A model generated the notes under the pieces. The model was not told where the DNA came from and ran no database searches. It worked only from the letters and a program-made list of their open reading frames with translations. DNA of 64,000 nucleotides, from positions 35,764 to 99,763 of the forward strand of contig JBKAGE010000072.1 of NCBI GenBank assembly GCA_046290225.1, given 5' to 3'. Source of the DNA: Bradymonadia bacterium. Lineage in GTDB: Bacteria > Myxococcota_A > Bradymonadia > UBA7976 > UBA1532. The position numbers were made by a program, and so were the translations under genes. Positions 2 to 56,956 of the stretch are shown one piece after another (the stretch's first letter is position 1; each line of letters opens with the position of its first letter).

Positions 2-1207
2 TCAGTCGAGGAGGCAGGCCTTGAAGGGGCCGTCACCGTTGGGGCGGAAGGCATCTTTGCAGGTGAGGCCCTCACGACAGCCCTTCATGGGGAACAGGCC
101 GTAATCGCACCGGCTGTGACACATGCCTTTGCCGTCGCCTTGAGCGATGCACACGGTGGCGGTGTGCGCGCCGGCCATATCGGGGCAGAAGCGCTCACAT
201 GACTGGCTGCACATACCCACAGCCTTGTCTTCTGCAGCTTCGTCTTCTGCAACGTCGTCTTCCCCAGCGCCTTCGGCGTCCAGAGTGATGCACTGAGCCT
301 CGGCGCTCTCGATCAGGTGACAATCCGAGACCGCCTCGCACGCACCGCCGATGAACCCACGGTTGAGCTCGACCTCCGGCGTGGGGGCCCGGGGACACAC
401 CAGCTCGGGATCGTCTGCGGCGCAGCGCTCGAGGTAGGTCTCCAGGATATCGCCAGTGGCCTGCATCTCTTCTACGGCGGGGCGGCCGATGTACCGGAAG
501 TGCCAGGGTTCGAAGGCGTACCCGGTGATCTCTTCTTTGCCGTCGGGGTAGCTCAGGGCGAAGCCGTATTTCCAGGCGTTGGCGGCGAGCCACATGCCCT
601 CGGTGGTGGAGAAGAGTTCGCTGGTGAGGGCCCAGTTCACCGAGGGGGTGGTGATGTCCGCGGTGGTGCCGAGCTGATGCTGGCTGCGGCCGGGCTGGGC
701 GCTGTAGCGGAAGGCGTGCTCGAAGCCGTTCTGCCTCACCTTGTAGTCGAAGGTAATGCACTGGGTGCGGTAGCTGCGGTAACCCGAGCGCACCCGCAAG
801 TCGAAGCCCTCTTCGGCGAAGGCATCGTCGGCCAGCTCGATGAAGGCCAGCCACGCGCCCTGACGCAACTTTGCCGAGCGGCCCGGCATGACGTAGCGCT
901 GGCCGAGCGCCATCAAATCGACGGGGGCATAATCGGCCTTCAGCCGCTGGTGCTCGTCTTTGTTCACCCAGGTGAGCAGATCGTCGCCGTCGAGATCACC
1001 GCTCCCGTGGCGCTCGCAGGGGTTGCTGTCGGCCTTGGACTCGAGATCGGCGAGCAAATCCGGATCGAGCTCGTGATCGTGGCCGGCTGACTCAGCAGCC
1101 GGTGGCTGCTCCTCTGGTCCCTCTGCAGACCCCACTCCAGAATCCGTCTCTGTTCCGCATGCGGTGAGAAACAGGGCCAGGCAGGCCATTTTGAAGTGCA
1201 TGTGCAT
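2..1207 (-). CDS. D-Ala-D-Ala carboxypeptidase-like zinc peptidase (M15/VanY, LAS family), lipoprotein
   Basis: ORF 2..1249. Internal ATG at 1207 is preceded by GAGG. Lipoprotein signal MHMHFKMACLALFLTAC. M15/LAS-like motifs SGYRSYRTQ, HQLGTTADI, EPWHFRY. Cys-rich acidic C-terminal tail. Confidence 0.75.
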   Translation of the reverse strand: MHMHFKMACLALFLTACGTETDSGVGSAEGPEEQPPAAESAGHDHELDPDLLADLESKADSNPCERHGSGDLDGDDLLTWVNKDEHQRLKADYAPVDLMALGQRYVMPGRSAKLRQGAWLAFIELADDAFAEEGFDLRVRSGYRSYRTQCITFDYKVRQNGFEHAFRYSAQPGRSQHQLGTTADITTPSVNWALTSELFSTTEGMWLAANAWKYGFALSYPDGKEEITGYAFEPWHFRYIGRPAVEEMQATGDILETYLERCAADDPELVCPRAPTPEVELNRGFIGGACEAVSDCHLIESAEAQCITLDAEGAGEDDVAEDEAAEDKAVGMCSQSCERFCPDMAGAHTATVCIAQGDGKGMCHSRCDYGLFPMKGCREGLTCKDAFRPNGDGPFKACLLD

Positions 1208-1411
1208 GAGAGACCTCACGGTGTTCGGCGTGTGCAGCATTCTGGGCATTCTTCTTTTAGCACTCTATGTGCCAGCCTTTCGAGACCCAGACACCGCCTC
1301 GCTTCAGCGGCGCCCTTCCAGCGCCGATGATTGAAGGGCCATCTCGCCGGGAGATGGTGGACGTCGAGGTCGGCTGGTGTCTACTATGCCCTCGCACCGT
1401 CCCACACACGG

Positions 1412-2308
1412 ATGTGGGGACCGCCCCAAGGAGGCCCATTGCGCACTCGAAGCCTGCTGACATCTGGCCCGCGTAAGCTCAACCCTCTCGCCCTGTGCGC
1501 CTTGATCCCCAGCCTCGCGATCGCTGATCCGCAGCCGACGCCGAGCCCTGCCGTGCCCTCTGCAGAGGTGCCCCTGGCTCCGGTCCGAGCCTTCACAGCC
1601 CCTGCCGAGCATCCCGAGGCCGGCGAGGGTGAGGCGATCGAGGTGGCCCAGCGCCGTCGCCGCCGTCGTCGCCGCCGCGCGGCCCCTGGAGGCATCGACG
1701 ACTCGGATCTCGCCCGCGAGGAGACCCTCGAAGAGCTCAAAGAGGAAGAGTACGAGAAAGAGGCGTGGTCCGTGGGTACTGCCATCGGCCTGAGCTTCAT
1801 CCCCGGCGGGGGTGCGGGGCTCATCTACGCCGAGAAGCCCGCGGCTTCGACAGTGCCCTACCTGCTCAGCGCCATCGGCTACGGGGTGGGCATCGCCTAC
1901 TTCGTCGGCGCCTTCGACGAGTCGTCGAGCGTGGTGTGCAACCATGACATCGACGGCCGCGTGGCCTTCGAAGAGTGCAGCTTCGGTGATCCCGGCAGCG
2001 CGGTGCGCAACGATCGCGATCCCCGCGGCACCCCCATCAACGGGCAGCAGCCCCCCTACTTCCAGACTCAGGGTCAGTACACCGAGGCCACCATCGGTGA
2101 AGACTTCGACGGCAAGCAGACGGGTCTGATCATCATCGCCGGCACCTACGTGGTGACGACGGTGCTCGGCGCTGTCTGGGCAGCCAGTTCGGTCTCTGAT
2201 CACAACGACGCGGTGCGCAAGAAGATCGACTCCACGGTGCAGGCGCCGAAGCCCATCGTGGCCTACGACGGCCGCCGTGGCTTCCTGGGCCTGTCCTTCG
2301 ACTTTTGA
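1412..2308 (+). CDS. hypothetical secreted/membrane protein with a poly-Arg tract
   Basis: ORF 1331..2308; first ATG at 1412. Signal-like LALCALIPSLAIA. Run QRRRRRRRRRAAPGG followed by an acidic helix and two hydrophobic segments. The antisense ORF 1304..2353 is judged an artefact. Start uncertain. Confidence 0.4.
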   Translation: MWGPPQGGPLRTRSLLTSGPRKLNPLALCALIPSLAIADPQPTPSPAVPSAEVPLAPVRAFTAPAEHPEAGEGEAIEVAQRRRRRRRRRAAPGGIDDSDLAREETLEELKEEEYEKEAWSVGTAIGLSFIPGGGAGLIYAEKPAASTVPYLLSAIGYGVGIAYFVGAFDESSSVVCNHDIDGRVAFEECSFGDPGSAVRNDRDPRGTPINGQQPPYFQTQGQYTEATIGEDFDGKQTGLIIIAGTYVVTTVLGAVWAASSVSDHNDAVRKKIDSTVQAPKPIVAYDGRRGFLGLSFDF

Positions 2309-2741
2309 GCGGACGGCTGTGCTGCGCACCGCCTGTAGCGAACGACCCAGCAAAAGCTTTCGCTTCGCTGCGTCTGTAGCGGACGCCTCGCCTTCGGCGA
2401 AAGCTGTAGCGGACGCTCATTTGCCTCCGGCAAATTCCCTGTAGCTTTTTTGAAGATCACTTTGGGGGCGTTGGCTCATCTACCGCGAACGTTGAGGGTT
2501 TCTGGCGGACCAGTTCCGGCGCAAGTCCAATCTGGGTTGAGAAGCCCAGCAGGTGCACCATAACTCTCTAAAAAGCTACAGCCCAGGCTGCCGGAGGCAG
2601 ACTCGGCGTCCGCTACAGCTCTGCAAGGCGAAGCCGCAGCAGGCGTCCGCTACAGGCGGTGCCAAAGGCACGGCCGTCCGCTACAGACGCAGCGAAGCTG
2701 GGTCGTCCGCTACAGGCAGCCGTCCGCTCACACCAGATACA
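2308..2741. repeat. MITE-like palindromic element built from CTGTAGCGGACG 12-mers
   Basis: Left arm 2308-2460 carries about four copies of CTGTAGCGGACG/CTGTAGCGAACG. Right arm 2570-2741 carries about five copies of the reverse complement CGTCCGCTACAG in mirrored order. Inner inverted pair GTAGCTTTTT/AAAAAGCTAC. Unique ~110 bp core. Lies in the intergenic region upstream of lspA. Confidence 0.6.
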
Positions 2742-2830
2742 AGCTAGAACAGCCCCCTTGTGCCTGCATAGGTCCCCGGTTTAAACCCACCCGGGCATAA
2801 GCCAGCAGCAGCAAAAGGTTCAGCCTCACC

Positions 2831-3388
2831 ATGAGACGCTACCGATCTTTGATGACGATCGCCTTCACCTGGGTGGTGGCCGACCAGCTCACCAAGTGGT
2901 GGGCCGTGTCGGCTCTATACCCCGGTGATCTCCCCGAGCAGGCCGGGCTTCTGCGGCGCAACACGCAGACCTACGAGGTCTTCGAGTCGTGGTTCCGATT
3001 CGAACTCGCCGGAAACAAGGGCGCCGCTTTCAGCATCTTCGGGACGATGTCGGAGTCGTTCCGCGTGCCCTTCTTCGTGATTCTCACGGCGGCGGCCATC
3101 GGGCTGATCTTCATGCTGTATCGCAAGACCCCTGACGATCAGCGCCTCATGAAGACCGCCCTGGCCTTTGTCATGGGTGGCGCCATCGGCAACTTGATCG
3201 ACCGGGTGGTGCGCGGATACGTGATCGACTTCATCAGCTGGCACTACGGCAACGAGTGGGCGTGGCCCACCTTCAACATCGCCGATGTGGCCATCAGCGT
3301 CGGGGTGGGCTTGCTGCTCATCGACGCCTTCTTCCAGAAGAAGCCTCCGGAGACCGAGCCTCCAGGCGCCGAACCACAGGACGCTTGA
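2831..3388 (+). CDS. lspA: lipoprotein signal peptidase II
   Basis: 185 aa. Conserved NKGAAFS and FNIADVAISVGV motifs of signal peptidase II. Four TM segments. Confidence 0.9.
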   Translation: MRRYRSLMTIAFTWVVADQLTKWWAVSALYPGDLPEQAGLLRRNTQTYEVFESWFRFELAGNKGAAFSIFGTMSESFRVPFFVILTAAAIGLIFMLYRKTPDDQRLMKTALAFVMGGAIGNLIDRVVRGYVIDFISWHYGNEWAWPTFNIADVAISVGVGLLLIDAFFQKKPPETEPPGAEPQDA

Positions 3389-3389
3389 C

Positions 3390-4367
3390 GTGCACCCAGT
3401 CCTGCTCAACCTGTTCGGGTACCCGATCCACCTGTATGCGGTGATGATCGCCACCGGTTTCATCGGTGGGGTCTGGCTCTCTGCCCGCTACGGCGAGCGG
3501 GTGGGCCTCGATCGCGACATGATCCTCGACCTGTGCTGGTGGCTGCTCGTGGCAGGCCTCGTCGGGGCCCGCATCGGCTTCATCGTCACCCAGTTCGATC
3601 AGTACTACCTGCCCTGTGTCGATGTACCCAGGTACAACGAGCTCTACCCCGACGATCCTCTCACCGAGCCCGACTGCTTCCGGTTGCTGAAGTTCTGGAA
3701 CGGCGGCCTCGTGTTCCTCGGCGGGGTGGTGCTGGCCCTCTTCGCCCTCGTCTGGTTCACCCGGCGCGAGGGTGTGAAGCTGCTCCCTGTGGCCGACGCC
3801 CTGATCCCTTCCCTGGCCCTGGGTCAGTTCTTCGGACGCCTGGGCTGCCTCGCCGCGGGCTGTTGCTGGGGCAAGGTCACCGAGGCGCCGTGGGCGATCC
3901 ATTTCCCCAAGGGCTCGATGGTGCACTACCTGCACGCCGAGGCTCACTTGATCCCCCACTCTGCCGTCGAGTCCATGGGGGTGCACCCCACTCAGCTCTA
4001 CGACGCCGGCGCGGGCTTGCTCATCTTCGGGCTGCTCATCTGGATCCGGCAGCGCAAGACCTGGCACGGGCAGGTCTTCGCGTGGTGGCTGCTGCTGTAC
4101 CCGCTCGCCCGCTCCACCATCGAACTGTTCCGTGGTGACGACGAGGAGCGCGGGTTCCTCTTCGAGGTGGTCTCCGAGTCCCTCAACGAGATGCTGGGCC
4201 TGCCTCCGGGCAGCATCACCTTCTTGTCCACGAGCCAGTTCATCAGCCTCTGCCTCGCCGCCGTGGCGGTGTACCTCATCCTCAGGCACCGCAAACAGGG
4301 CGCCGCGAACGATCCGCCGAGCGCGCCCACCAGCGCGCCGCCGACGGACGAGGCGAGCGCAGTCTGA
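3390..4367 (+). CDS. lgt: prolipoprotein diacylglyceryl transferase
   Basis: In-frame GTG at 3390, directly after the lspA stop, gives VHPVLLNLFGYPIHLYAVM... Lgt hallmarks include the GRLGCLAAGCCWGK and HPTQLYDAG regions. The ORF tracker extends upstream to 3285 only because it overlaps lspA. Confidence 0.9.
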   Translation: MHPVLLNLFGYPIHLYAVMIATGFIGGVWLSARYGERVGLDRDMILDLCWWLLVAGLVGARIGFIVTQFDQYYLPCVDVPRYNELYPDDPLTEPDCFRLLKFWNGGLVFLGGVVLALFALVWFTRREGVKLLPVADALIPSLALGQFFGRLGCLAAGCCWGKVTEAPWAIHFPKGSMVHYLHAEAHLIPHSAVESMGVHPTQLYDAGAGLLIFGLLIWIRQRKTWHGQVFAWWLLLYPLARSTIELFRGDDEERGFLFEVVSESLNEMLGLPPGSITFLSTSQFISLCLAAVAVYLILRHRKQGAANDPPSAPTSAPPTDEASAV

Positions 4368-4372
4368 CCGTC

Positions 4373-5236
4373 ATGAAGGGCTTCGGGCTCATTTCATCGC
4401 TGTGCGTGATGGTGCTGCTGAGCGGCTGCGGCTCCGCGGGCAAGGTGCAGGTCCAGCCACTGGGCCCTGAGCGCGCCTCCACACGTGATGCACATGTAGA
4501 GTTCATCGAGGGGCTTCGCGGGCTGCCAGCGGGGTTCTTCTACGTCGAAGACCCGATGGGCCGGAAGGCCCACCTGCACGCTGTGGCCGAGTACCCCACT
4601 CTGGGATCCCCTCATCAGGTGATCGGCGCCCTGTTGATTCAAAACGCAGATCGCCTGCTGGCCCCGCTTGACGACGAGGCCCGCTCCAAGTTGCGCGCCC
4701 GGGCCACCACGTTGGGGGCCAACCGCATCTTCTTCCCCAACGCCCGACGCGCTTTCGGGTATGCGATTTGGGTGAGCAATGCCCAACCATCAGCGCACCA
4801 CCTGGGCCTCGAGGGCATCACACGTCAGCGAGAGGCGTTGTCCGGCTGGACTCCGGTGTCCGAGCCGATTCAGGCGACGCTCGACGACGCCCAGATCGTG
4901 CTCGAGGGTGAGGCGGGCTTCTGTCACCAGCTGCTGGTCTCGCTCGATCAAGACGCTCAATGGGCCGAGGGCGCCTCTCGCGGGCTCGCTGTCGTACGCG
5001 AGGGCCGAAAGCTGCTGGTCCGCCAGTCACTGGGCGAGATCGACGGGTTCCCCATCGTCGCCCCCACAGGAGGCCGCTACGTGGGGCTGCACGCCTTCAG
5101 CCAGCCCCTGGGGTGTTTGAAGGCGAACACGACGCAGCACCTGACCCTCACCGACCGACTCGGCAAAGCCGCAGGGCGCGGCGACGTCTGGCTTCAGTTG
5201 GTGAGGCGACCTCGGCGCAGGAAGGGCCGCCGCTGA
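4373..5236 (+). CDS. hypothetical lipoprotein
   Basis: Lipobox LLSGC after MKGFGLISSLCVMV. 287 aa. No recognisable catalytic motif. Start is 5 nt after the lgt stop. Confidence 0.55.
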   Translation: MKGFGLISSLCVMVLLSGCGSAGKVQVQPLGPERASTRDAHVEFIEGLRGLPAGFFYVEDPMGRKAHLHAVAEYPTLGSPHQVIGALLIQNADRLLAPLDDEARSKLRARATTLGANRIFFPNARRAFGYAIWVSNAQPSAHHLGLEGITRQREALSGWTPVSEPIQATLDDAQIVLEGEAGFCHQLLVSLDQDAQWAEGASRGLAVVREGRKLLVRQSLGEIDGFPIVAPTGGRYVGLHAFSQPLGCLKANTTQHLTLTDRLGKAAGRGDVWLQLVRRPRRRKGRR

Positions 5237-5239
5237 GCG

Positions 5240-8194
5240 TCAGCGACGGCTCGCCAGGGCCGTGCGGGCGCCACCGGCACGCAACAGCTCGATGATGGCG
5301 TCGCGGTTGGGCAACTCGGCCCCCTGCAGCTCCTCCACCAGCGCCGCCACCTTCTGTGCCTCTTCGAGGTAGCCGAAGGCCAACGGACCCAACGCTGAAG
5401 GGTCGAGGCTCTCCACGAACCCCAGCCCCTCTCGATAGACGATGTCGGCGGCGAGCCGCGCAGCCATTACACGGTGCAGATACGCCTGGGGCAGACCAGC
5501 CACGGCCGCTTCGCCTGCGGTGCTCAGCAAGACCTGAGGCAAGTGAGACCGCACCAGGGGCATCATGCGGGATTGCCCCTCGTCACCCACCTGACCCAAA
5601 CCGGTGAAGATGGCGTCGCCGAGGGTGTTGATGGCCCGGCTCAGGCGAATGCTGGTCCGGGCCAGAGACTGACTCGGGTCGAGGCGGTGGGTGCGGAACA
5701 AGGCCTCGGCCTCTTGACGGGCCACGGCCCTCAGCCGGTGCAGCACCTGCTCGACGAAGACATCCTTGATGGCCATGAAGGCCTCCGCAGAGACCAGCAT
5801 CCCGGCGGCGATCTCGAAGCTCGAGCAGATCACCCCGCACTTGTTCGCGGAGCTGTCCTTGACCACGAGCACGCCGGCCTCGGCGGAGAGCGCCTCACGG
5901 GCCCCCTTGGTGAGGAACAGGTTGGCCCCTTCGACGATGAGCTTTGCCCGAGGGCGGCCGCCTGCGTCGAGGAAGGATCGCCAGTTCCCTTCGTGGATCG
6001 TACCTGGGCGCCCGCCGCAAGGCAGGAACGCGTCGACGGTGAGGCGCTCGTGCAGGGTGTTCCGCCGGTGGGCGCCTTCAGGGGCGCTCAGGGGCACCAC
6101 CTGACCCCGAGGGCTCAGGTGCGATGGATCGAAGTCAGCGATGGGCAACCCCTCGGCCACCAGGCGTAACAACTCGCCGTGGTCGAGACCCTCGGGATCT
6201 TCCGCGCTGCCGCTGCCGTCGGCGATGCCCACGATGTGGGCGTGCTCTCCGAACTCCCGGTGGAGGATCTTGATCTCGTTCCCCGCCACGTCACCATCGG
6301 GGCCGCCAGTGAGGCTCACGGTGAAGGGTGTGGTACGCGGATCGATGCCGATGGCGTTGAGGGCCACCTCGAGGAACACCGTCACCCCTTCGCTGGTGAC
6401 GCCGTACCGCTTGTGATTGATGCCTGCGCCGGGCTTGCTGCTCATGAAGACGTCGGGCAACGGGTAGCCGCGGCTGCGGGCTCGCTCCACGAGCCACACG
6501 ATGTAGTCGTCGGCGATGTTCTCGTCGGGGCCCAGGTACAAAATCTCGGGGCGACCCAGGCGGTCAGGCACAGGCTCGGTGGCGGGCACCAGCAGGTCGA
6601 GTAACGCGTCGCCGAAAGCCTTCACCGACGACTCGACGTCGACGTTGGGCTCCAGCAACATCACCCCCTTAGACCCACCCTCGGGGATGTCCTTATTCTT
6701 GAGCTGTTGGGCAAAGGCGAGGCCGTACACCTCGTCGTAGAGCCGCTGCGCCTCGCGAAAGTGGTGCTCGGGGTTGCGGGATCGCACCGCCCGGATGCCG
6801 CCCCGAGCGATGTCCCGGAACCGCACGTGGAACCCGTCGAAGCCCCTGCCGTGCACGAAGAACACGCCATAGGGCAGCACCGCCCGGTTGGGATCATCTG
6901 CGTCGGTGAGGAACGCCGGATCGAGGCGGAATGAGAGGGCATAGCGCCCCTCTCGGTGCACATTGGTCTTGAGGACCGCCTTCACCGCCCGGGTCAGCGT
7001 CACCATGACCTGACGGGCCTCCGGAGCATCTACCAGCATGGGCAGAGTGGCCTCGATGGCATCGACTTGAGCGAGGAAGTCTTCCTCAGCGAGGGTCTCC
7101 TGGGGGTCGAAGCGGCTGATGAGGGCCTGGACCAGCGGCATCACCACCTGTGGGTGTCGATCTGCAGCCTCGAGGATCCTGGCCCGGGAGAACCCGTGTC
7201 GGTCACGCTTCGTGAGCGACTGGTGTGCCAGATCACACAAAGCCACCTGCATCTCTGCAGCGAGCACGTCGAAAGCGTGCTCGGCGCCAGAGCGCGCCAG
7301 CACCCGATCGTCGAGCCACTTGAGGCGCCCGCAGGCCCGGCTCAGCTCCGCCCACAAGGGGCTGCCTGCATCGAGCTCTTCGTCTTCTGGCGGTGCCACC
7401 ACAAAGCTCAACACCGCCAATGCCCTACCTGTGGCCGGCTCTTCGGGATCATCCGCCGGCCCGCGCTCGTCGAAGAGATCGAGGTAGGCGCGGCGAATAT
7501 CGACCCCGCGGCTCCCGAAGTGATGGGAAAACCGCTCAAGCAGGGTCCGGGGCTGGGCGCGGTCCACGGTGATGGTCACCCGCCACAGATCAGGCTCGAG
7601 CAGGTCCTGCTCCAAGTGAGCCACAGCGGCCTCGGTGCCCTCCACCGCCTGGATCTGCCGCCAGTGCATCCACGAGCGGGCGGGGCTGATGGTGTTCAGG
7701 TACGACAGGCTGCAGCGGGTGAGGTGGCGCTCGAAGGCAGCGTCGACCTCGCCACCGTTCGCCTCGAGGGCGTGGGCTCGGAAAGGCGACAACAGCGCCT
7801 CGTGCTCAGGGTTGCCCATGTCGACGTACGCGGCGCCGCCGAAGCGGAACACGTCGACAACGAGGGCGCCGTCGTTGCTGGTGTGCACCTTCGCCGACGA
7901 CAGGCGCTTCCCCTTGGGCAGGCGCTTCAACAACGCCCCCAGGAGACCGCGTCGATCCTGAGCATGGATGAAGGTGACCTCGCTGCCGTCATCGCGCTGG
8001 AGCGTCAGCGAGAGGGGCTGCTCCGAGGCCCGAGCGGCGATCAGAGCCCCGATGTGCGCCTCACGACTGCGCAGATCAGTGTCGCGAAAATATGACGGCG
8101 GCATCACCGACAAGAACCAGGGCACCACCTGCTCGGTGGTCTCGGCAAATGTATCGGAGAGGCGGCGGACGAGCTCTTCAGAAGAGGTGGACAT
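5240..8194 (-). CDS. NAD-specific glutamate dehydrogenase, large (~110 kDa) class
   Basis: 984 aa. Glu/Leu/Phe/Val dehydrogenase core motifs GGSKGVMLL, GPDENI and SSKPGAGINHKRYGVTSEGV sit in the centre of long N- and C-terminal extensions, as in GDH2-type NAD-GDH. Confidence 0.75.
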   Translation of the reverse strand: MSTSSEELVRRLSDTFAETTEQVVPWFLSVMPPSYFRDTDLRSREAHIGALIAARASEQPLSLTLQRDDGSEVTFIHAQDRRGLLGALLKRLPKGKRLSSAKVHTSNDGALVVDVFRFGGAAYVDMGNPEHEALLSPFRAHALEANGGEVDAAFERHLTRCSLSYLNTISPARSWMHWRQIQAVEGTEAAVAHLEQDLLEPDLWRVTITVDRAQPRTLLERFSHHFGSRGVDIRRAYLDLFDERGPADDPEEPATGRALAVLSFVVAPPEDEELDAGSPLWAELSRACGRLKWLDDRVLARSGAEHAFDVLAAEMQVALCDLAHQSLTKRDRHGFSRARILEAADRHPQVVMPLVQALISRFDPQETLAEEDFLAQVDAIEATLPMLVDAPEARQVMVTLTRAVKAVLKTNVHREGRYALSFRLDPAFLTDADDPNRAVLPYGVFFVHGRGFDGFHVRFRDIARGGIRAVRSRNPEHHFREAQRLYDEVYGLAFAQQLKNKDIPEGGSKGVMLLEPNVDVESSVKAFGDALLDLLVPATEPVPDRLGRPEILYLGPDENIADDYIVWLVERARSRGYPLPDVFMSSKPGAGINHKRYGVTSEGVTVFLEVALNAIGIDPRTTPFTVSLTGGPDGDVAGNEIKILHREFGEHAHIVGIADGSGSAEDPEGLDHGELLRLVAEGLPIADFDPSHLSPRGQVVPLSAPEGAHRRNTLHERLTVDAFLPCGGRPGTIHEGNWRSFLDAGGRPRAKLIVEGANLFLTKGAREALSAEAGVLVVKDSSANKCGVICSSFEIAAGMLVSAEAFMAIKDVFVEQVLHRLRAVARQEAEALFRTHRLDPSQSLARTSIRLSRAINTLGDAIFTGLGQVGDEGQSRMMPLVRSHLPQVLLSTAGEAAVAGLPQAYLHRVMAARLAADIVYREGLGFVESLDPSALGPLAFGYLEEAQKVAALVEELQGAELPNRDAIIELLRAGGARTALASRR

Positions 8195-43452: not shown

Positions 43453-45258
43453 GTGATGTCTCTCCCCTCAACACACGGCCACCGCGCCCTCCGGCCGCGG
43501 GGGCTGTCGCTCATCGAGATCCTCGTGGTCATCGCCCTGCTGGGCATGATCCTGGTGGCCATCATCGTGAGCTTGACCCCCGGTGACGATCAGCGCGTAC
43601 GCAAAGAGGCCGAGCGCCTCGCCGCCTATCTGACCGCGGCTTCTGCAGAAGGCCTCATGCGCGACGGCCCGGTGCGGGTGGCCTTCGATCTCGAAGATCA
43701 ACGCTACGCCCGAGAGGTGGGCCGCGTAGGGGCCGACATCAGCGCCGCCATGTGGGATCCGGACAAGCGGGCCAAGCGCCAGACCGTGGGCAAGCCGGTG
43801 AAGCTGACCGTGCTCGATCTCCCTCTCGTGGGCGAGATGAAGTCGGGCCGCGGCTGGATGGTCTGGAACGGCGTGCGCACGGGCGGTGGGGTGGCAGTGC
43901 TCGAGTACAACGCCGCCATGTGGTCGGTGGTGGTGGACCCCCGCTCCGGCGACATCGACGTAGTGAAGGGCCGTGGCCGCCTGCCCGAGCGCTCGGTGGC
44001 CCGCGGCAGCCGCTACTTCCTCAACGACAACGCCCTCGCGGGCCTCTCCGGTCCGGGCTCCGACGTGCTCGACACTCCAAACATCGACGATCTCGATGCT
44101 GGTGTGCTGCCCCCCTTGCCCAACCTGGGCAACGACACTCCCATCGAAGACGACGACGACTTCGACGCTGACCTGCCCCTCGATGATGAAGAGGAAGAAG
44201 AGGAAGAGCTCCAGGGGCCTCAAGATACACCCGTGGAAGAAGATGATGATCCCGAGGACCTCGACGCCGGGGTCGATGACACCCCCGATGCGGATCTCGG
44301 CTGTACTCGGGACGAGGACTGCAAAGATCCGGGCGATCCCTCGACGGAGTTTCATCGCTGTTATCTGCCCCCAGGCGAAGCCGGTGGCACATGCGTCTTC
44401 GATCCTGCAGGAATGGACTTCCGGGTGGACCGTCTCACAGTCACTCAGCCTCAGGGCTTGCTGGCCACTCTCATGAGCGCGGTGTTGCAGGACGGCATCA
44501 ACCGCCGCCGGACCAACATTCTCTTCTCGTTCCCCTATCGAGACGCCCCAGGGCAGGCGTGGCTGTATGGGCCCTCGGACACGATCAGCCAGGGGATGTA
44601 CATCTCCCAGGCAGAGACGAACGGCTCCAGCTATCAGTCCAAGCTCGACCTGCCCTCGTTCAACATGGGCCTTTTGAACATGCGCGGCGTCACGAGCGCA
44701 CAGGGCAACGTGTCACAGGTCCAGTATTGCGATGAGCTGAACGCCTCTCGTGGTGGTGCGTGCACCCTCGAAATGCAGAAGCGCGACAGCGCCTTCTCCG
44801 GCACCGCTGGGCGGCTGGAGTTCTACGCTCAAGGCGGCCGTATCCCTGGTACTCGAACTGAGTGCCTGATCCGATTCGTCCTGCCATCGACCACCATTGT
44901 GCAGTTCGATCTCAGCTATGATCGCGGCTGGAACGCCGACATCAACATGCTGGCGGTGATCAACACCAGCCACGCCGACGAGACCGAGCTGCCCGAAAAC
45001 GTCATCCCCGCTGAGCTGAAAGAAGCCCTTGATGACCAAAACGCCGAGTACTACACGCTGCGGGAGATCTTCAAAGCGCTGGGCATGGCTGATCCCACCT
45101 ACGATCAGAACCGTGATGGGGTAAAAGACTCCTGGCAGATGGGTTTCCAAGGCACGGCCAGCCTGGTGGAGCTCGGCAACAACGATGCTCAAGCGACCCG
45201 GATCTTGAGCGGACTGGTGGGCAGAGAGCCCTCTCGGACGTGCTCTGATGACGACTGA
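43453..45258 (+). CDS. prepilin-type N-terminal cleavage/methylation-domain protein (T2SS pseudopilin/type IV pilin-like), 600 aa
   Basis: N-terminal RGLSLIEILVVIALLGMILVAII matches the G/F-xxxE prepilin peptidase site and hydrophobic helix. Unusually large C-terminal region with a polyacidic stretch DDEEEEEEELQ...EEDDDPEDLD. Confidence 0.65.
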   Translation: MMSLPSTHGHRALRPRGLSLIEILVVIALLGMILVAIIVSLTPGDDQRVRKEAERLAAYLTAASAEGLMRDGPVRVAFDLEDQRYAREVGRVGADISAAMWDPDKRAKRQTVGKPVKLTVLDLPLVGEMKSGRGWMVWNGVRTGGGVAVLEYNAAMWSVVVDPRSGDIDVVKGRGRLPERSVARGSRYFLNDNALAGLSGPGSDVLDTPNIDDLDAGVLPPLPNLGNDTPIEDDDDFDADLPLDDEEEEEEELQGPQDTPVEEDDDPEDLDAGVDDTPDADLGCTRDEDCKDPGDPSTEFHRCYLPPGEAGGTCVFDPAGMDFRVDRLTVTQPQGLLATLMSAVLQDGINRRRTNILFSFPYRDAPGQAWLYGPSDTISQGMYISQAETNGSSYQSKLDLPSFNMGLLNMRGVTSAQGNVSQVQYCDELNASRGGACTLEMQKRDSAFSGTAGRLEFYAQGGRIPGTRTECLIRFVLPSTTIVQFDLSYDRGWNADINMLAVINTSHADETELPENVIPAELKEALDDQNAEYYTLREIFKALGMADPTYDQNRDGVKDSWQMGFQGTASLVELGNNDAQATRILSGLVGREPSRTCSDDD

Positions 45259-45337
45259 GTGGCATGCTGCCTGGCCAATGCTCGTCAATGACTCGAAACG
45301 TGAGTGAGCATGTGGGTCTCGAAGCCCAGATGCGTGT

Positions 45338-46495
45338 GTGCTGATGACAACTGAACTACGCTCCCTGTGGCCTGCTGTGGCCCTGCTCGTCGCCTTCGCG
45401 GGTTGTGAAGACAACAGCCCGAAGACGCTGCGGAACTACAACAGCCCGCAGCCCGACGCCTTCATCCCCGAGCTGCCCGACGCCGAGCCTTCTCCCGACG
45501 CTCTGCCGCCGCCTGACGCCGAGATCCCCGATTTCGAGGTGCCCGAGGTGGCCTGCACCGGGGAAGATGATCAGTGTCCCTTGCTGCACAGCTGCATCGC
45601 TGGCACCTGCACGCCCTTCATCGACGGGCACTACCGTGTCACCGGCCTCGCGGTGACCCAGCCTGCCGGCGCGGCGAACCTGCTCACGGCGGCCTTCAGG
45701 GCCACGCTCAACCAGGGTGATTTGCGTCTGGTCCTCGAGGCAGATGGTTACCTCGGTGACGGCGATTTCCGCTGGTTCCTGGGCTACGCCGACGAGGCCC
45801 CGCTGATCCGCGACGGGTGCCCCACCAACGAGGTGCTCCCGGGCAAGTACGTGTTCCGTCACGATCAGCCCATCTTCCCCCTAGACGGCCCCTGGCTCAC
45901 CTCGCCTCTCCGGCCACCCCCGGACGCCGGCGTCGCTGATCCGGACGCTGATGCTGGCATGCCCGACACAGAAGAGCCGGATCTGCTGGCCCCCGACTGC
46001 GCCCCCTCGGGCCTGCGCTTCGTTCAACGTGTGCCCCTGGACTTCACCCTCACCTACCCGAGTGGCTCCCCAGTCCAGGTGGACGATCCTTCGCCCTGTG
46101 CTCAGGAGGGCGACAAGGTCAACGCGTCCTGCTACTCGCGCATTGTGGTAGAGGCCACCTTCGAGGTTCGCCCCTGCCTCGCGCCCGCCCCTGAAGGCGC
46201 TGAGGCTCTGCTGACACCGCCCGGACCCAACCTGCGCGGCGTACTCAGCGGAGTTCTGGCCGAAAGCGAGGTTCGGGGCCTGGACATCATCGTGGGCGGT
46301 ATCTCGAACAACCTGGCCTCTCTCCTGGCCAGCCAGGGGGTCCTGCCCACGGTCGACACCAATGACGACGGTGCCAGCGACGCCTACCCCTTCGAATTCG
46401 AGTTCCTCGCCACGCCGACGGTTTTCGTGGATGACAATGAGGATCGGATTCTCAGCCCAGTGCGTGAGGCTGATGAGTTGTGTGATCTTCGCTGA
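45338..46495 (+). CDS. hypothetical lipoprotein
   Basis: MLMTTELRSLWPAVALLVAFAGCEDN lipobox. Pro/Asp-rich linker. Cys-containing domain. Confidence 0.5.
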   Translation: MLMTTELRSLWPAVALLVAFAGCEDNSPKTLRNYNSPQPDAFIPELPDAEPSPDALPPPDAEIPDFEVPEVACTGEDDQCPLLHSCIAGTCTPFIDGHYRVTGLAVTQPAGAANLLTAAFRATLNQGDLRLVLEADGYLGDGDFRWFLGYADEAPLIRDGCPTNEVLPGKYVFRHDQPIFPLDGPWLTSPLRPPPDAGVADPDADAGMPDTEEPDLLAPDCAPSGLRFVQRVPLDFTLTYPSGSPVQVDDPSPCAQEGDKVNASCYSRIVVEATFEVRPCLAPAPEGAEALLTPPGPNLRGVLSGVLAESEVRGLDIIVGGISNNLASLLASQGVLPTVDTNDDGASDAYPFEFEFLATPTVFVDDNEDRILSPVREADELCDLR

Positions 46496-46523
46496 CTCTC
46501 TGTTGGGGGGCGCTCCGCGGGCA

Positions 46524-46790
46524 AGAGAGTTTTTCGGGCACGGGCACGGGCACGGGCACGGGCACGAGTTTTACGGATGTGGACAGTGCAGCCTGAGGCT
46601 GCATGTCTTGGAGCGAGTGGAGGTCGGCGTAGCTGGCCGGAGGGAGCGGAAAGACACCCGGAGGGCTGTCCACTGTTTGGCCTGACAGTGCAGCCTGAGG
46701 CTGCATGTCTTGGAGCGAGTGTAGGCCTGCGTAGCTGGCCGGAGGGAGCGGAAAGACACCCGTAGGGCTGGCCACTGTTCGACCTTGGAC
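46524..46790. repeat. left inverted-repeat arm flanking four-helix-bundle gene
   Basis: Contains (CACGGG)5 and two tandem ~87-bp subunits, each with the hairpin TGCAGCC-TGA-GGCTGCA. Near-perfect reverse complement of 47298-47580. Confidence 0.85.
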
Positions 46791-46830
46791 TCGTGACCCA
46801 GTGAGGGGTCAAAGCTGTATGTTGGGTTGA

Positions 46831-47184
46831 CTATGAGGCTCGACTGGCCATCTTGATGAGCATGGCCACGACATCTACGAGCAGTGATTTGCCATCTTGT
46901 GCCCGCTCAGCTCGGCCAAGCCGAAGCATATGCAGACAATCCAAGACCGCAGCACACTCCGTAGCCGATCTCTTGGCCATCCGATAAAAACGACTCTTCT
47001 CAGCCTTTGAGAACTCGCCAGCTCCTTCCGCAATGTTCAGCACTACAGACAAAGACGCACGTCTCAATTGATCTGAGAGATACGCCCTTCCTGTAGGCAG
47101 TTGACGACAGAGTTCATCAGACAACACCAAAAACTCGAGCGACTTGCGGTAGACATCCAACCTCTCGTGATCAAGACAGCTCAT
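46831..47184 (-). CDS. four-helix-bundle protein (23S rRNA intervening-sequence protein family, TIGR02436/PF05635)
   Basis: ATG at 47184 preceded by GGAGG. 117 aa. LDVYRKSLEF...SDQLRRASLSVVLNIAEGAGEFSKAEKSRFYRMAKRSATE matches the family consensus (QL.RAA.S...NIAEG.G). Lower GC than surroundings. Confidence 0.7.
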   Translation of the reverse strand: MSCLDHERLDVYRKSLEFLVLSDELCRQLPTGRAYLSDQLRRASLSVVLNIAEGAGEFSKAEKSRFYRMAKRSATECAAVLDCLHMLRLGRAERAQDGKSLLVDVVAMLIKMASRAS

Positions 47185-47297
47185 ATGACCTCCAATGCTG
47201 GTTCTCATTGGGTCTACATCCGAGGGTGCTGATGCCTTCCACCAAAATTGACCCATACCAAGGATCGCCCCCCCTCATCACGCACAGGTTTGACCCC

Positions 47298-47580
47298 TCA
47301 CCGGGCCATGGGTCCAGGGTCGAACAGTGGCCAGCCCTCCGGGTGTCTTTCCGCTCCCTCCGGCCAGCTACGCAGGCCTAAACTCGCTCCAAGACATGCA
47401 GCCTCAGGCTGCACTGTCAGGCCAAACAGTGGACAGCCCTCCGGGTGTCTTTCCGCTCCCTCCGGCCGGCTACGCCGCCCTCCACTCGCTCCAAGACATG
47501 CAGCCTCAGGCTGCACTGTCCACACCCGTAAAACTCGTGCCCGTGCCCGTGCCCGTGCCCGTGCCCGAAAACTCTCTCAC
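47298..47580. repeat. right inverted-repeat arm flanking four-helix-bundle gene
   Basis: Reverse complement of 46524-46790, including (CCCGTG)5. Confidence 0.85.
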
Positions 47581-47721
47581 CCGCGGAGCGCCCCCCAAAG
47601 AACCAAAACCTCTCACCTCCCCCTTCCTGCGATATAATCCCCACCCATTGAGCCAGTCTGCCCCTCAATCCCGTACCGAGGCACGGGTTGTGGCGACGGC
47701 GAACACGCAGGGAGACACTGC

Positions 47722-56871: not shown

Positions 56872-56956
56872 GCGAAGGTGGCGGAATTGGTAGACGCGCT
56901 AGGTTGAGGGCCTAGTGTCCGCTTAGGACGTGGGGGTTCGACTCCCCCCCTTCGCA
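56872..56956 (+). tRNA. tRNA-Leu (anticodon GAG)
   Basis: Class II tRNA, 85 nt. Sequence GCGAAGG TG GCGG AATTGGTAGA CGCG C TAGG TTGAGGG CCTAG T GTCCGCTTAGGAC GT GGGGG TTCGACT CCCCC CCTTCGC A. Near-identical D arm, T arm and acceptor to E. coli tRNA-Leu. CCA not encoded. Confidence 0.85.

Follow-up and report, generated by a model that had tools for sequence, protein, structure and literature searches.

In the genome of a Bradymonadia bacterium (GenBank assembly GCA_046290225.1, contig JBKAGE010000072.1), a gene for a small four-helix-bundle (4HB) protein is enclosed by long inverted repeats, and we consider, with slightly better than even confidence, that this unit belongs to a widespread family of cassettes derived from transposons, as a non-autonomous member with long arms. 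The unit occupies positions 46503–47598 (1,096 bp), between two protein-coding genes, of a 64,000-nt stretch of the contig, which measures 112 kb and belongs to a metagenome-assembled genome; this whole stretch is referred to below as the window. As defined here, members of the family carry an intact S23p/Avd-like 4HB gene between inverted arms with about five hexamers, each composed of GGG and three further nucleotides. The family was delineated by comparison of the window locus with approximately 90 related loci found by 4HB homology, and the interest lies in this family, revealed by the window copy, rather than in the copy itself.

Structure of the inverted-repeat unit

The unit consists of two arms of approximately 316 nt each (46503–46818 and 47284–47598) and a 465-bp core (46819–47283), which holds the 4HB open reading frame (ORF). 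The arms differ from each other by 13 substitutions and one 1-nt indel, and the mean column identity of the full arm alignment is 97%. The inner stretch of 288 nt (46531–46818 and 47284–47571) is 96% complementary; past the 1-nt indel, the repeat extends outward over 31 nt at 94% (46503–46533 and 47568–47598). A preliminary description of this locus, made from the sequence alone, had recognized the inverted repeat but gave it as 265 bp long and perfect; its arms are both longer and less perfect than that. The GC content of the arms is 0.64–0.66.

From the outside to the inside, each arm is composed of a 32-nt unique segment, a (GGGCAC)5.3 array, 15 nt, two 102-nt units, and an inner segment of approximately 33 nt (the terminal segments, the tandem units, and the right arm interior were assigned no strand). 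The left outer terminal segment TTGGGGGGCGCTCCGCGGGCAAGAGAGTTTTT (46503–46534) lies outside the hexamer array and pairs with the right one, AAAACTCTCTCACCCGCGGAGCGCCCCCCAA (47568–47598), which adjoins the −10-like sequence GATATAAT of the FKBP gene. The left array, (CGGGCA)5.3 or (GGGCAC)5 (46535–46566; Tandem Repeats Finder (TRF) score 64, 100% matches), is G-rich on the plus strand, so that its G-rich strand runs from the outside to the inside, a polarity designated frame B. The right array, detected by TRF as (CGTGCC)5.3 at 47536–47567, is the reverse complement of the left one, with the G-rich strand on the minus strand. The microsatellite of five CACGGG copies per arm that had been reported previously was thus found in both arms with 5.3 copies. 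These are the sole such arrays in the 64 kb, with 0.00 expected from shuffled sequences.

The two left 102-nt tandem units (46582–46683 and 46684–46785) and the two right ones (47318–47418 and 47420–47520) are 92–94% identical according to TRF and self-comparison. All four contain the hairpin TGCAGCC-TGA-GGCTGCA, in agreement with the two tandem subunits per arm of the preliminary description; the period of approximately 87 bp given there was measured as 102 nt. The 36-nt hairpin core occurs four times in the window, once per 102-nt unit, vs. 0.00 expected. The innermost part of the left arm (46786–46818) holds a small hairpin, GACCC-AGTGA-GGGGTC, and 12 nt separate it from the 4HB stop codon. 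The right arm interior (47284–47535) comprises the inner hairpin segment and its two 102-nt units. Mirror units across the arms are 97% alike vs. 93% for adjacent units within one arm; thus, the arms either arose by a duplication later than the tandem one or have been homogenized against each other. The 102-nt units are private to the window locus, with zero blastn similarity to the 94 other loci. A genome-wide repeat family built from this unit was considered and rejected, given this lack of similarity and the absence of matches to its 21- and 25-mers.

Folding of single 102-nt units was barely better than that of shuffles (z from about −2.3 to 0), and folding of a whole arm was unremarkable on the plus strand (z = −0.5) and gave z = −3.4 on the minus strand. 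The whole unit was predicted to fold as RNA into a stem of approximately 316 bp with the ORF in the loop; the stem-loop around the gene suggested earlier is thermodynamically trivial for such arms. No known RNA family covered the unit at the gathering score in an Rfam scan of the 64-kb window, and the locus gave chance-level matches only.

The four-helix-bundle gene

The 4HB gene (46831–47184 including the stop codon, minus strand) is antisense to its neighbor genes and encodes 117 aa of the S23p / 23S rRNA intervening sequence (IVS) protein / Avd-like type. The preliminary assignment to TIGR02436 at these positions agreed well with the profile scores, which were far above the curated cut-offs for both TIGR02436 (71 bits, cut-off 24) and PF05635 (76 bits, cut-off 33.8; E = 3e-21; profile positions 1–105 of 106). 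Sequence comparison revealed similarity to PDB 2GSC over residues 5–105 (E = 9e-11). All residues invariant in the family are kept in the window protein, which is basic (pI 9.0). The GC content of the gene, already noted as low, is 0.52, compared with a window value of 0.647; in composition, the gene is foreign.

The ribosome-binding site GGAGG reported earlier was located at 47189–47193, 4 nt ahead of the ATG, within a unique 99-nt leader (47185–47283, minus strand) that presumably also contains the gene's own promoter; a scan for the sigma-70 consensus gave no match in the leader. The NCBI call for this gene (141 aa, P0001) begins 24 codons upstream of the family-consistent ATG, and an exact look-up found neither the 117- nor the 141-aa product on record. 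The annotated 4HB product of another locus (P0003) has a C-terminal tail, ...GRGSGSGS, derived from reading into the downstream hexamer array, and repeats can therefore lengthen gene calls in the 4HB family.

Outer junctions and the empty site in a relative

Two contigs of the Logan short-read assembly SRR22269038, one with the left flank (L095) and one with the right flank (L001), matched the window exactly, including the outer arm segments, where the two arms of the window differ. Each contig breaks within a hexamer array, as expected where a short-read assembly graph meets an inverted microsatellite. Both outer junctions of the unit are real and did not arise in assembly; how the 465-bp core is oriented between the arms is set by the window assembly alone.

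The unit is flanked by a 385-aa ORF on the left, the stop codon of which is 7 nt from the unit, and by an FKBP gene on the right. The only non-identical homologue of the left neighbor (P0122, 66% identity) is encoded on a 12.6-kb contig (L094) with the same gene order as the window: abhydrolase, two unknown genes, the 385-aa orthologue, FKBP, and a large FG-GAP protein. On this contig, 52 nt lie between the stop codon of the orthologue and the start of FKBP, and there is no 4HB gene and no repeats. Directly to the right of the window unit, GCGATATAAT aligns with the −10-like sequence CGCTATAAT of this empty spacer, which places the unit between the upstream stop codon and the region of the FKBP promoter. 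The preliminary description had named the gene with identical flanks in relatives as the observation that would speak against mobility, and the site found in the relative is instead empty. The unit of approximately 1.1 kb is an insertion/deletion difference between relatives. Because of the low GC content of the gene and the empty site on the related contig, an insertion in the window appears likelier than a deletion in the one relative compared.

A family of cassettes with inverted hexamer arrays

The closest 4HB homologues, 53–64% identical to the window protein, were found in Chlamydiota, Verrucomicrobiota, Planctomycetota, Myxococcota, Holophagae, Legionella, and Coxiellaceae. Such identity across unrelated phyla implies horizontal movement, and the homologue loci with inverted arrays span at least six phyla. 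Inverted repeats of 25–160 nt surround the 4HB gene in approximately 70 of the 80 best genome loci, with a hexamer array as their core.

Within 450 nt of the gene, 1.62 perfect arrays of at least three units were counted per kb, vs. 0.076 per kb elsewhere in the same loci. For further counts, 23 copies from one genome were dropped, leaving 57 independent genome loci. The strict detector found arrays at 32 of them, on both sides of the gene in 22, vs. 4 arrays in 232 kb of distant sequence; combined with a GTGCCC-template detector, it revealed inverted (N3CCC)n/(GGGN3)n arrays at 48 of the 57. The hexamer unit varies by lineage (GTGCCC, TTGCCC, GAGCCC, ATGCCC, and GTTCCC/GTACCC): the CCC/GGG tract and the 6-nt period do not change, the spacer bases drift, and the two arms of any cassette always share one hexamer unit. 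Among unique arrays, those with 3, 4, 5, and 6 units numbered 23, 29, 50, and 19, respectively, five being the commonest count. At one locus (L093), the array is hyper-expanded to 26 hexamers (GGGCAG/GGGCAA) from +10 to +163 after the 4HB gene. The conserved hallmark of the family is the microsatellite and not the 102-nt units, a point overlooked in the preliminary description.

The 4HB protein family in these cassettes is under strong purifying selection: the median ratio of nonsynonymous to synonymous substitution rates (dN/dS) was 0.064 (116 pairs), with an apparently intact gene in 75 of 92 copies. Tandem multiplication of the arm was detected also at L003/L004 (59 nt), L035 (45 nt), L054 (approximately 40 nt), L064, and L065, so that the 102-nt units of the window are an extreme case of an arm expansion common in the family. 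At these six loci (positions 3386–3617 in L003), whole arm segments including the hexamers are arranged in tandem in 3–5 copies, with a period of approximately 40–100 nt, on one side of the gene. '23S rRNA IVP' is among the CRISPR-array-linked proteins listed by a large CRISPR screen (PMC10910872), and tandem arm repeats may explain the CRISPR-array linkage scored for the 4HB family.

None of the 19 loci scanned for ribosomal context (short-contig, Legionella, and Coxiellaceae loci) lies in rRNA. A phage or plasmid origin of the unit was rejected, as no relatives were found in IMG/VR or PLSDB and no match in PHROGs or PADLOC. The locus of the closest homologue (64% identity; L002, ENA contig_108, around 343–6348) is a region rich in mobile elements, with genes for an IS66-family transposase, a PemK toxin, and a TnpB/Cas12f-like protein within 3 kb.

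An IS5-family transposon carrying the module

A 1.43-kb element containing the same module was found in the long-read Chlamydiota assembly CAWCVY01 (MFD01633.bin.3.44; more than 20 loci) and in metagenome contigs L005–L013 (P0049). It is arranged in the order terminal inverted repeat (TIR), hexamer array, IS5-family orfA/orfB, 4HB gene, hexamer array, and TIR. Its ends are 60 nt long and comprise a 28-nt terminus, GAC[A/T]TCTTGCATAAC..., and about five hexamers. The transposase is encoded in two frames with an A-run frameshift site, and the 4HB gene overlaps the transposase stop codon. The hexamers lie inside the termini, and the left array and the 4HB gene have the transposase between them, which indicates an interleaved arrangement and not a simple nesting of two elements. 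The Chlamydiota 4HB proteins are 58–62% identical to that of the window.

Among 32 distinct insertions of this element, 30 were flanked by TA on both sides, and the flanking DNA was unrelated. Three size classes were distinguished in CAWCVY01: 1.43 kb, approximately 1.1 kb with an internal deletion of the transposase, and 0.5–0.65 kb with only the 4HB gene and the ends. Two further elements of 301–409 bp in the same assembly (L017, 5245–5780) keep little beyond the ends. The gene-plus-array module thus transposes within an IS5-family element, producing TA duplications; the 1.43-kb element is apparently uncatalogued.

The window unit resembles this element in that an outer unique segment (32 nt in the window, 28 nt there) is followed by about five hexamers, and the transposase-less derivatives consist, like the window unit, of the gene and the ends. 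It differs from the Chlamydiota element by the absence of a TA duplication and of a transposase, by the opposite array polarity, and by an additional 250 nt of arm made of 102-nt units.

The possibility that several transposase families all use the module held only partly. At L059 (2247–3759), an IS4-family element with its own 18-nt ends, GCAATGTCATTCGGTTAA, lies inside a (GTGCCC)n array with array sequence on either side; it is a secondary insertion and indicates that arrays can serve as insertion targets. At L019 (1060–2630) of Verrucomicrobia, an IS630-family transposase gene (NF033545, 218 bits) precedes the 4HB gene, with 4 nt between its end and the 4HB start codon, and both genes are enclosed by hexamer-only arms; separate transposon ends for the IS630-family gene were not found at this locus.

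Proposed mechanism

According to the transposon-derived reading, the window copy would have arrived by transposition into a 50–60-nt spacer directly past the upstream stop codon, with a transposase that was supplied in trans or has since been lost. The arms would then have been lengthened by tandem duplication of the 102-nt unit, and gene conversion between the arms would keep them alike. The 4HB protein probably binds the arrays of about five units at both ends, and this binding could pair or mark the ends for transposition or could repress transposition. Accessory end-binding proteins of other transposons act at subterminal repeats. The arrays co-occur with the 4HB protein and not with any one transposase, from which we infer that they serve as its cis partner. 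The pentameric state of a homologue is suggestive when set beside the commonest count of five hexamers. A full-length transcript would form a double-stranded RNA stem of approximately 316 bp, which RNase III would excise as in rRNA intervening sequences, and such excision would limit harm to the flanking genes.

GGG with three nucleotides, repeated at least four times, is a G-quadruplex motif. In the ViennaRNA quadruplex model, a quadruplex was the minimum-energy fold of the isolated G-strand (−18.9 vs. −13.1 kcal/mol). Both array polarities exist, and this favors duplex DNA or a paired stem as the recognized form over one particular strand.

We also put forward, tentatively and with considerable doubt, a wider proposal in which the 4HB protein, together with a pair of inverted arrays of some five GGG-plus-3-nt units, would serve bacterial DDE transposons as a portable module for their ends. 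The arrays would be read or folded by a pentameric 4HB ring, possibly as a G-quadruplex or i-motif, and the ends thereby paired or licensed. Whether or not accompanied by a transposase in cis, the module would have spread over Chlamydiota, Verrucomicrobiota, Planctomycetota, Myxococcota, Acidobacteriota, and Gammaproteobacteria, and ORF-bearing 23S rRNA IVSs would be decayed insertions, kept since RNase III removes the arms.

Evaluation of the transposon-derived origin and of alternatives

A number of observations on the window copy weigh against a transposon-derived origin. Its termini, TTGGGGGG..., do not resemble those of the Chlamydiota transposon (GAC[A/T]TCTTGCATAAC). No target-site duplication was found at 46503 or 47598, the flanks being CTCTG|TTGGGG...CCCCAA|AGAAC, and the check for direct repeats next to the unit proposed in the preliminary description thus gave none at either end. 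The 64-kb window contains no transposase, IS5-like ones included. Further copies of the terminal repeat, which had also been suggested for search, were not found: no segment of the arms recurs elsewhere in the window, and exact arm 21- and 25-mers are absent from 185,579 species-representative genomes and from the JGI metagenomes. A single relative cannot formally separate an insertion in the window from a deletion on the related contig. The array polarity of the window, which is fixed by the independently confirmed junction sequences, is that of a minority, common to L054 (Myxococcales), L045, L067, L072, and L074, and inversion of the core cannot turn the majority polarity into that of the window. 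Since both polarities exist, a strand-specific role of the arrays would have to work in both. Finally, quadruplex formation, binding of the arrays by the 4HB protein, and cleavage by RNase III are all predicted steps. The window arms are 2–10 times longer than any other in the family, most members of which have arms of only 25–60 nt made of hexamers. Overall, the window copy is an orphan and possibly inactive member of the family. The mobilizable unit of the preliminary description is in line with the empty site and with the mobility of homologous cassettes, and it is at variance with the lack of a target-site duplication, of a second copy, and of a transposase in the window.

The fold of the transcript could be the whole function: the arms would then act only as an RNA stem cut by RNase III, like an rRNA intervening sequence, so that cleavage frees or destroys the 4HB message and insulates the neighbors, the arrays being a register-tolerant G:C-rich stem that needs no transposon origin. 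We consider this rather unlikely as the full account. It agrees with the folding of the whole unit into a stem around the ORF and with the architecture of the Coxiella and Leptospira IVSs, whose ORF belongs to the same family and which RNase III cleaves (PMC4990558); the Coxiella IVS also has short tandem repeats of variable number by its ORF (PMC4990558). A stem works in either polarity and so fits the coexistence of frames A and B. However, it leaves unexplained the conserved period of GGG plus 3 nt with about five units and drifting spacers, and it does not account for the insertion polymorphism or for the TA-flanked multicopy spread. Both arrays lie on one side of the gene in L044, L072, and L074, and the 99-nt leader lies inside the arms, so the gene's own transcript probably does not include the upstream arm. 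As an added property of the element, an RNA-level role is compatible with a transposon-derived origin.

That origin also has to be set against a domesticated, immobile host gene, for which the arrays would be operators for autoregulatory looping, the arms a local duplication, and the difference from the related contig a deletion there. The missing target duplication, other copy, and transposase of the window copy would fit this possibility, as would the strong purifying selection on the protein and the closeness of the arrays to both gene ends in most loci. We regard it as quite unlikely in view of the foreign GC content of the gene, the horizontal spread across unrelated phyla implied by 53–64% identity, the presence of the same module within a proven transposon, and the reach of the window inverted repeat 32 nt outside the arrays, as in a TIR. 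Inversion of the core by RecA or a recombinase, which would switch the gene relative to outside promoters, is very improbable. Long inverted repeats of 97% identity are good substrates for homologous inversion, and the short-read assemblies break in the arms, leaving the core orientation not independently fixed; however, no recombinase gene was found within approximately 8 kb of the unit, the short hexamer arms of most members speak against such a role, and flipping of the core cannot yield two array polarities. A fold-back chimera in the metagenome-assembled genome is least credible, hardly worth entertaining. Assemblers or amplification can produce palindromes, and a search of the Logan collection for an exact protein match did not recover the unit interior, but the arms differ at 13 positions and by one indel, an independent assembly reproduces both junctions exactly where the arms differ, and the same architecture is present in approximately 70 unrelated assemblies, long-read ones included. 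A diversity-generating retroelement was rejected: there is no reverse transcriptase among the neighbors, the repeats are inverted, and the arm mismatches are mixed and not adenine-specific.

Relation to known systems

The 4HB protein family itself is already known, as are rRNA IVSs containing its ORF and insertion sequences that have given rise to non-autonomous derivatives. The 23S rRNA IVSs with an S23p ORF in Leptospira and Coxiella burnetii belong to the same PF05635/TIGR02436 family as the window gene, and in them, as in the window unit, the ORF is in the loop of an inverted-repeat stem with short tandem repeats nearby. Such S23p-ORF intervening sequences were reportedly treated by Ralph and McClelland in 1993. 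The window unit, unlike an IVS at helix 25 or helix 45, is not in a 23S rRNA gene (no rRNA was found in the window with Rfam), and its arms are approximately ten times longer. The window gene is intact and its subfamily is under purifying selection, whereas the Coxiella IVS ORF was reported to be decaying and untranslated (PMC4990558). ORF-bearing rRNA IVSs are regarded as selfish and are suspected to be of transposon origin; in the early 1990s, it was proposed that they are mobile elements, the ORF of which aids mobility (PMC4990558).

The solved homologue 2GSC was reported as a homopentamer (PMC4990558). Avd (PDB 4DWL), an accessory protein of retroelements, belongs to the same superfamily of basic pentameric four-helix bundles (PMC10053308). 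Avd systems have direct template/variable repeats and a reverse transcriptase, in contrast to the inverted repeats and the absence of a nearby reverse transcriptase in the window unit. Long inverted ends with internal tandem subrepeats and with short repeated motifs close inside the termini, as in the window unit, occur also in eukaryotic Foldback elements, En/Spm, and Ac/Ds. Ends of this kind, built of subrepeats (12 bp and subterminal for En/Spm TnpA, AAACGG hexamers for Ac/Ds), are bound by an accessory protein. The likeness is an analogy only, as the proteins and hosts are unrelated to those of the window unit and there is no homology.

In the literature, with ISfinder outside the search, we found neither a description of inverted hexamer arrays around this 4HB subfamily nor an insertion sequence with a 4HB gene; free-living insertion-polymorphic 4HB cassettes were likewise not found described. 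TIGR02436/PF05635 is a very large family without an assigned function outside the Avd of diversity-generating retroelements. The window locus and its approximately 90 relatives represent a free-living, insertion-polymorphic form of the repeat-ORF-repeat unit, and the family includes a version that demonstrably transposes with a DDE transposase, together with a conserved cis motif. The array of about five GGG-plus-3-nt hexamers is a candidate ligand for the pentameric protein, by which the function of the 4HB protein becomes testable in binding and transposition assays. The portable end module, if true, would provide a function for the orphan TIGR02436 family and would settle the origin of rRNA IVSs, a question since the early 1990s.

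Neighboring genes and other observations

The left-hand neighbors of the unit, at 43453–46495 of the window, encode proteins of 601 and 385 aa. In the 601-aa protein, a weak match to a prepilin-type methylation motif (E = 3e-4) is located at the N-terminus, and the protein also contains a long low-complexity stretch of acidic character. The 385-aa protein has no Pfam match and a single non-identical homologue in 5.8 billion sequences. A tRNA gene at 56872–56956 is the sole Rfam match at the gathering score in the 64 kb. At one of the related loci (L086, 681–764), a tRNA gene is located approximately 30 nt past the right arm of the 4HB cassette.

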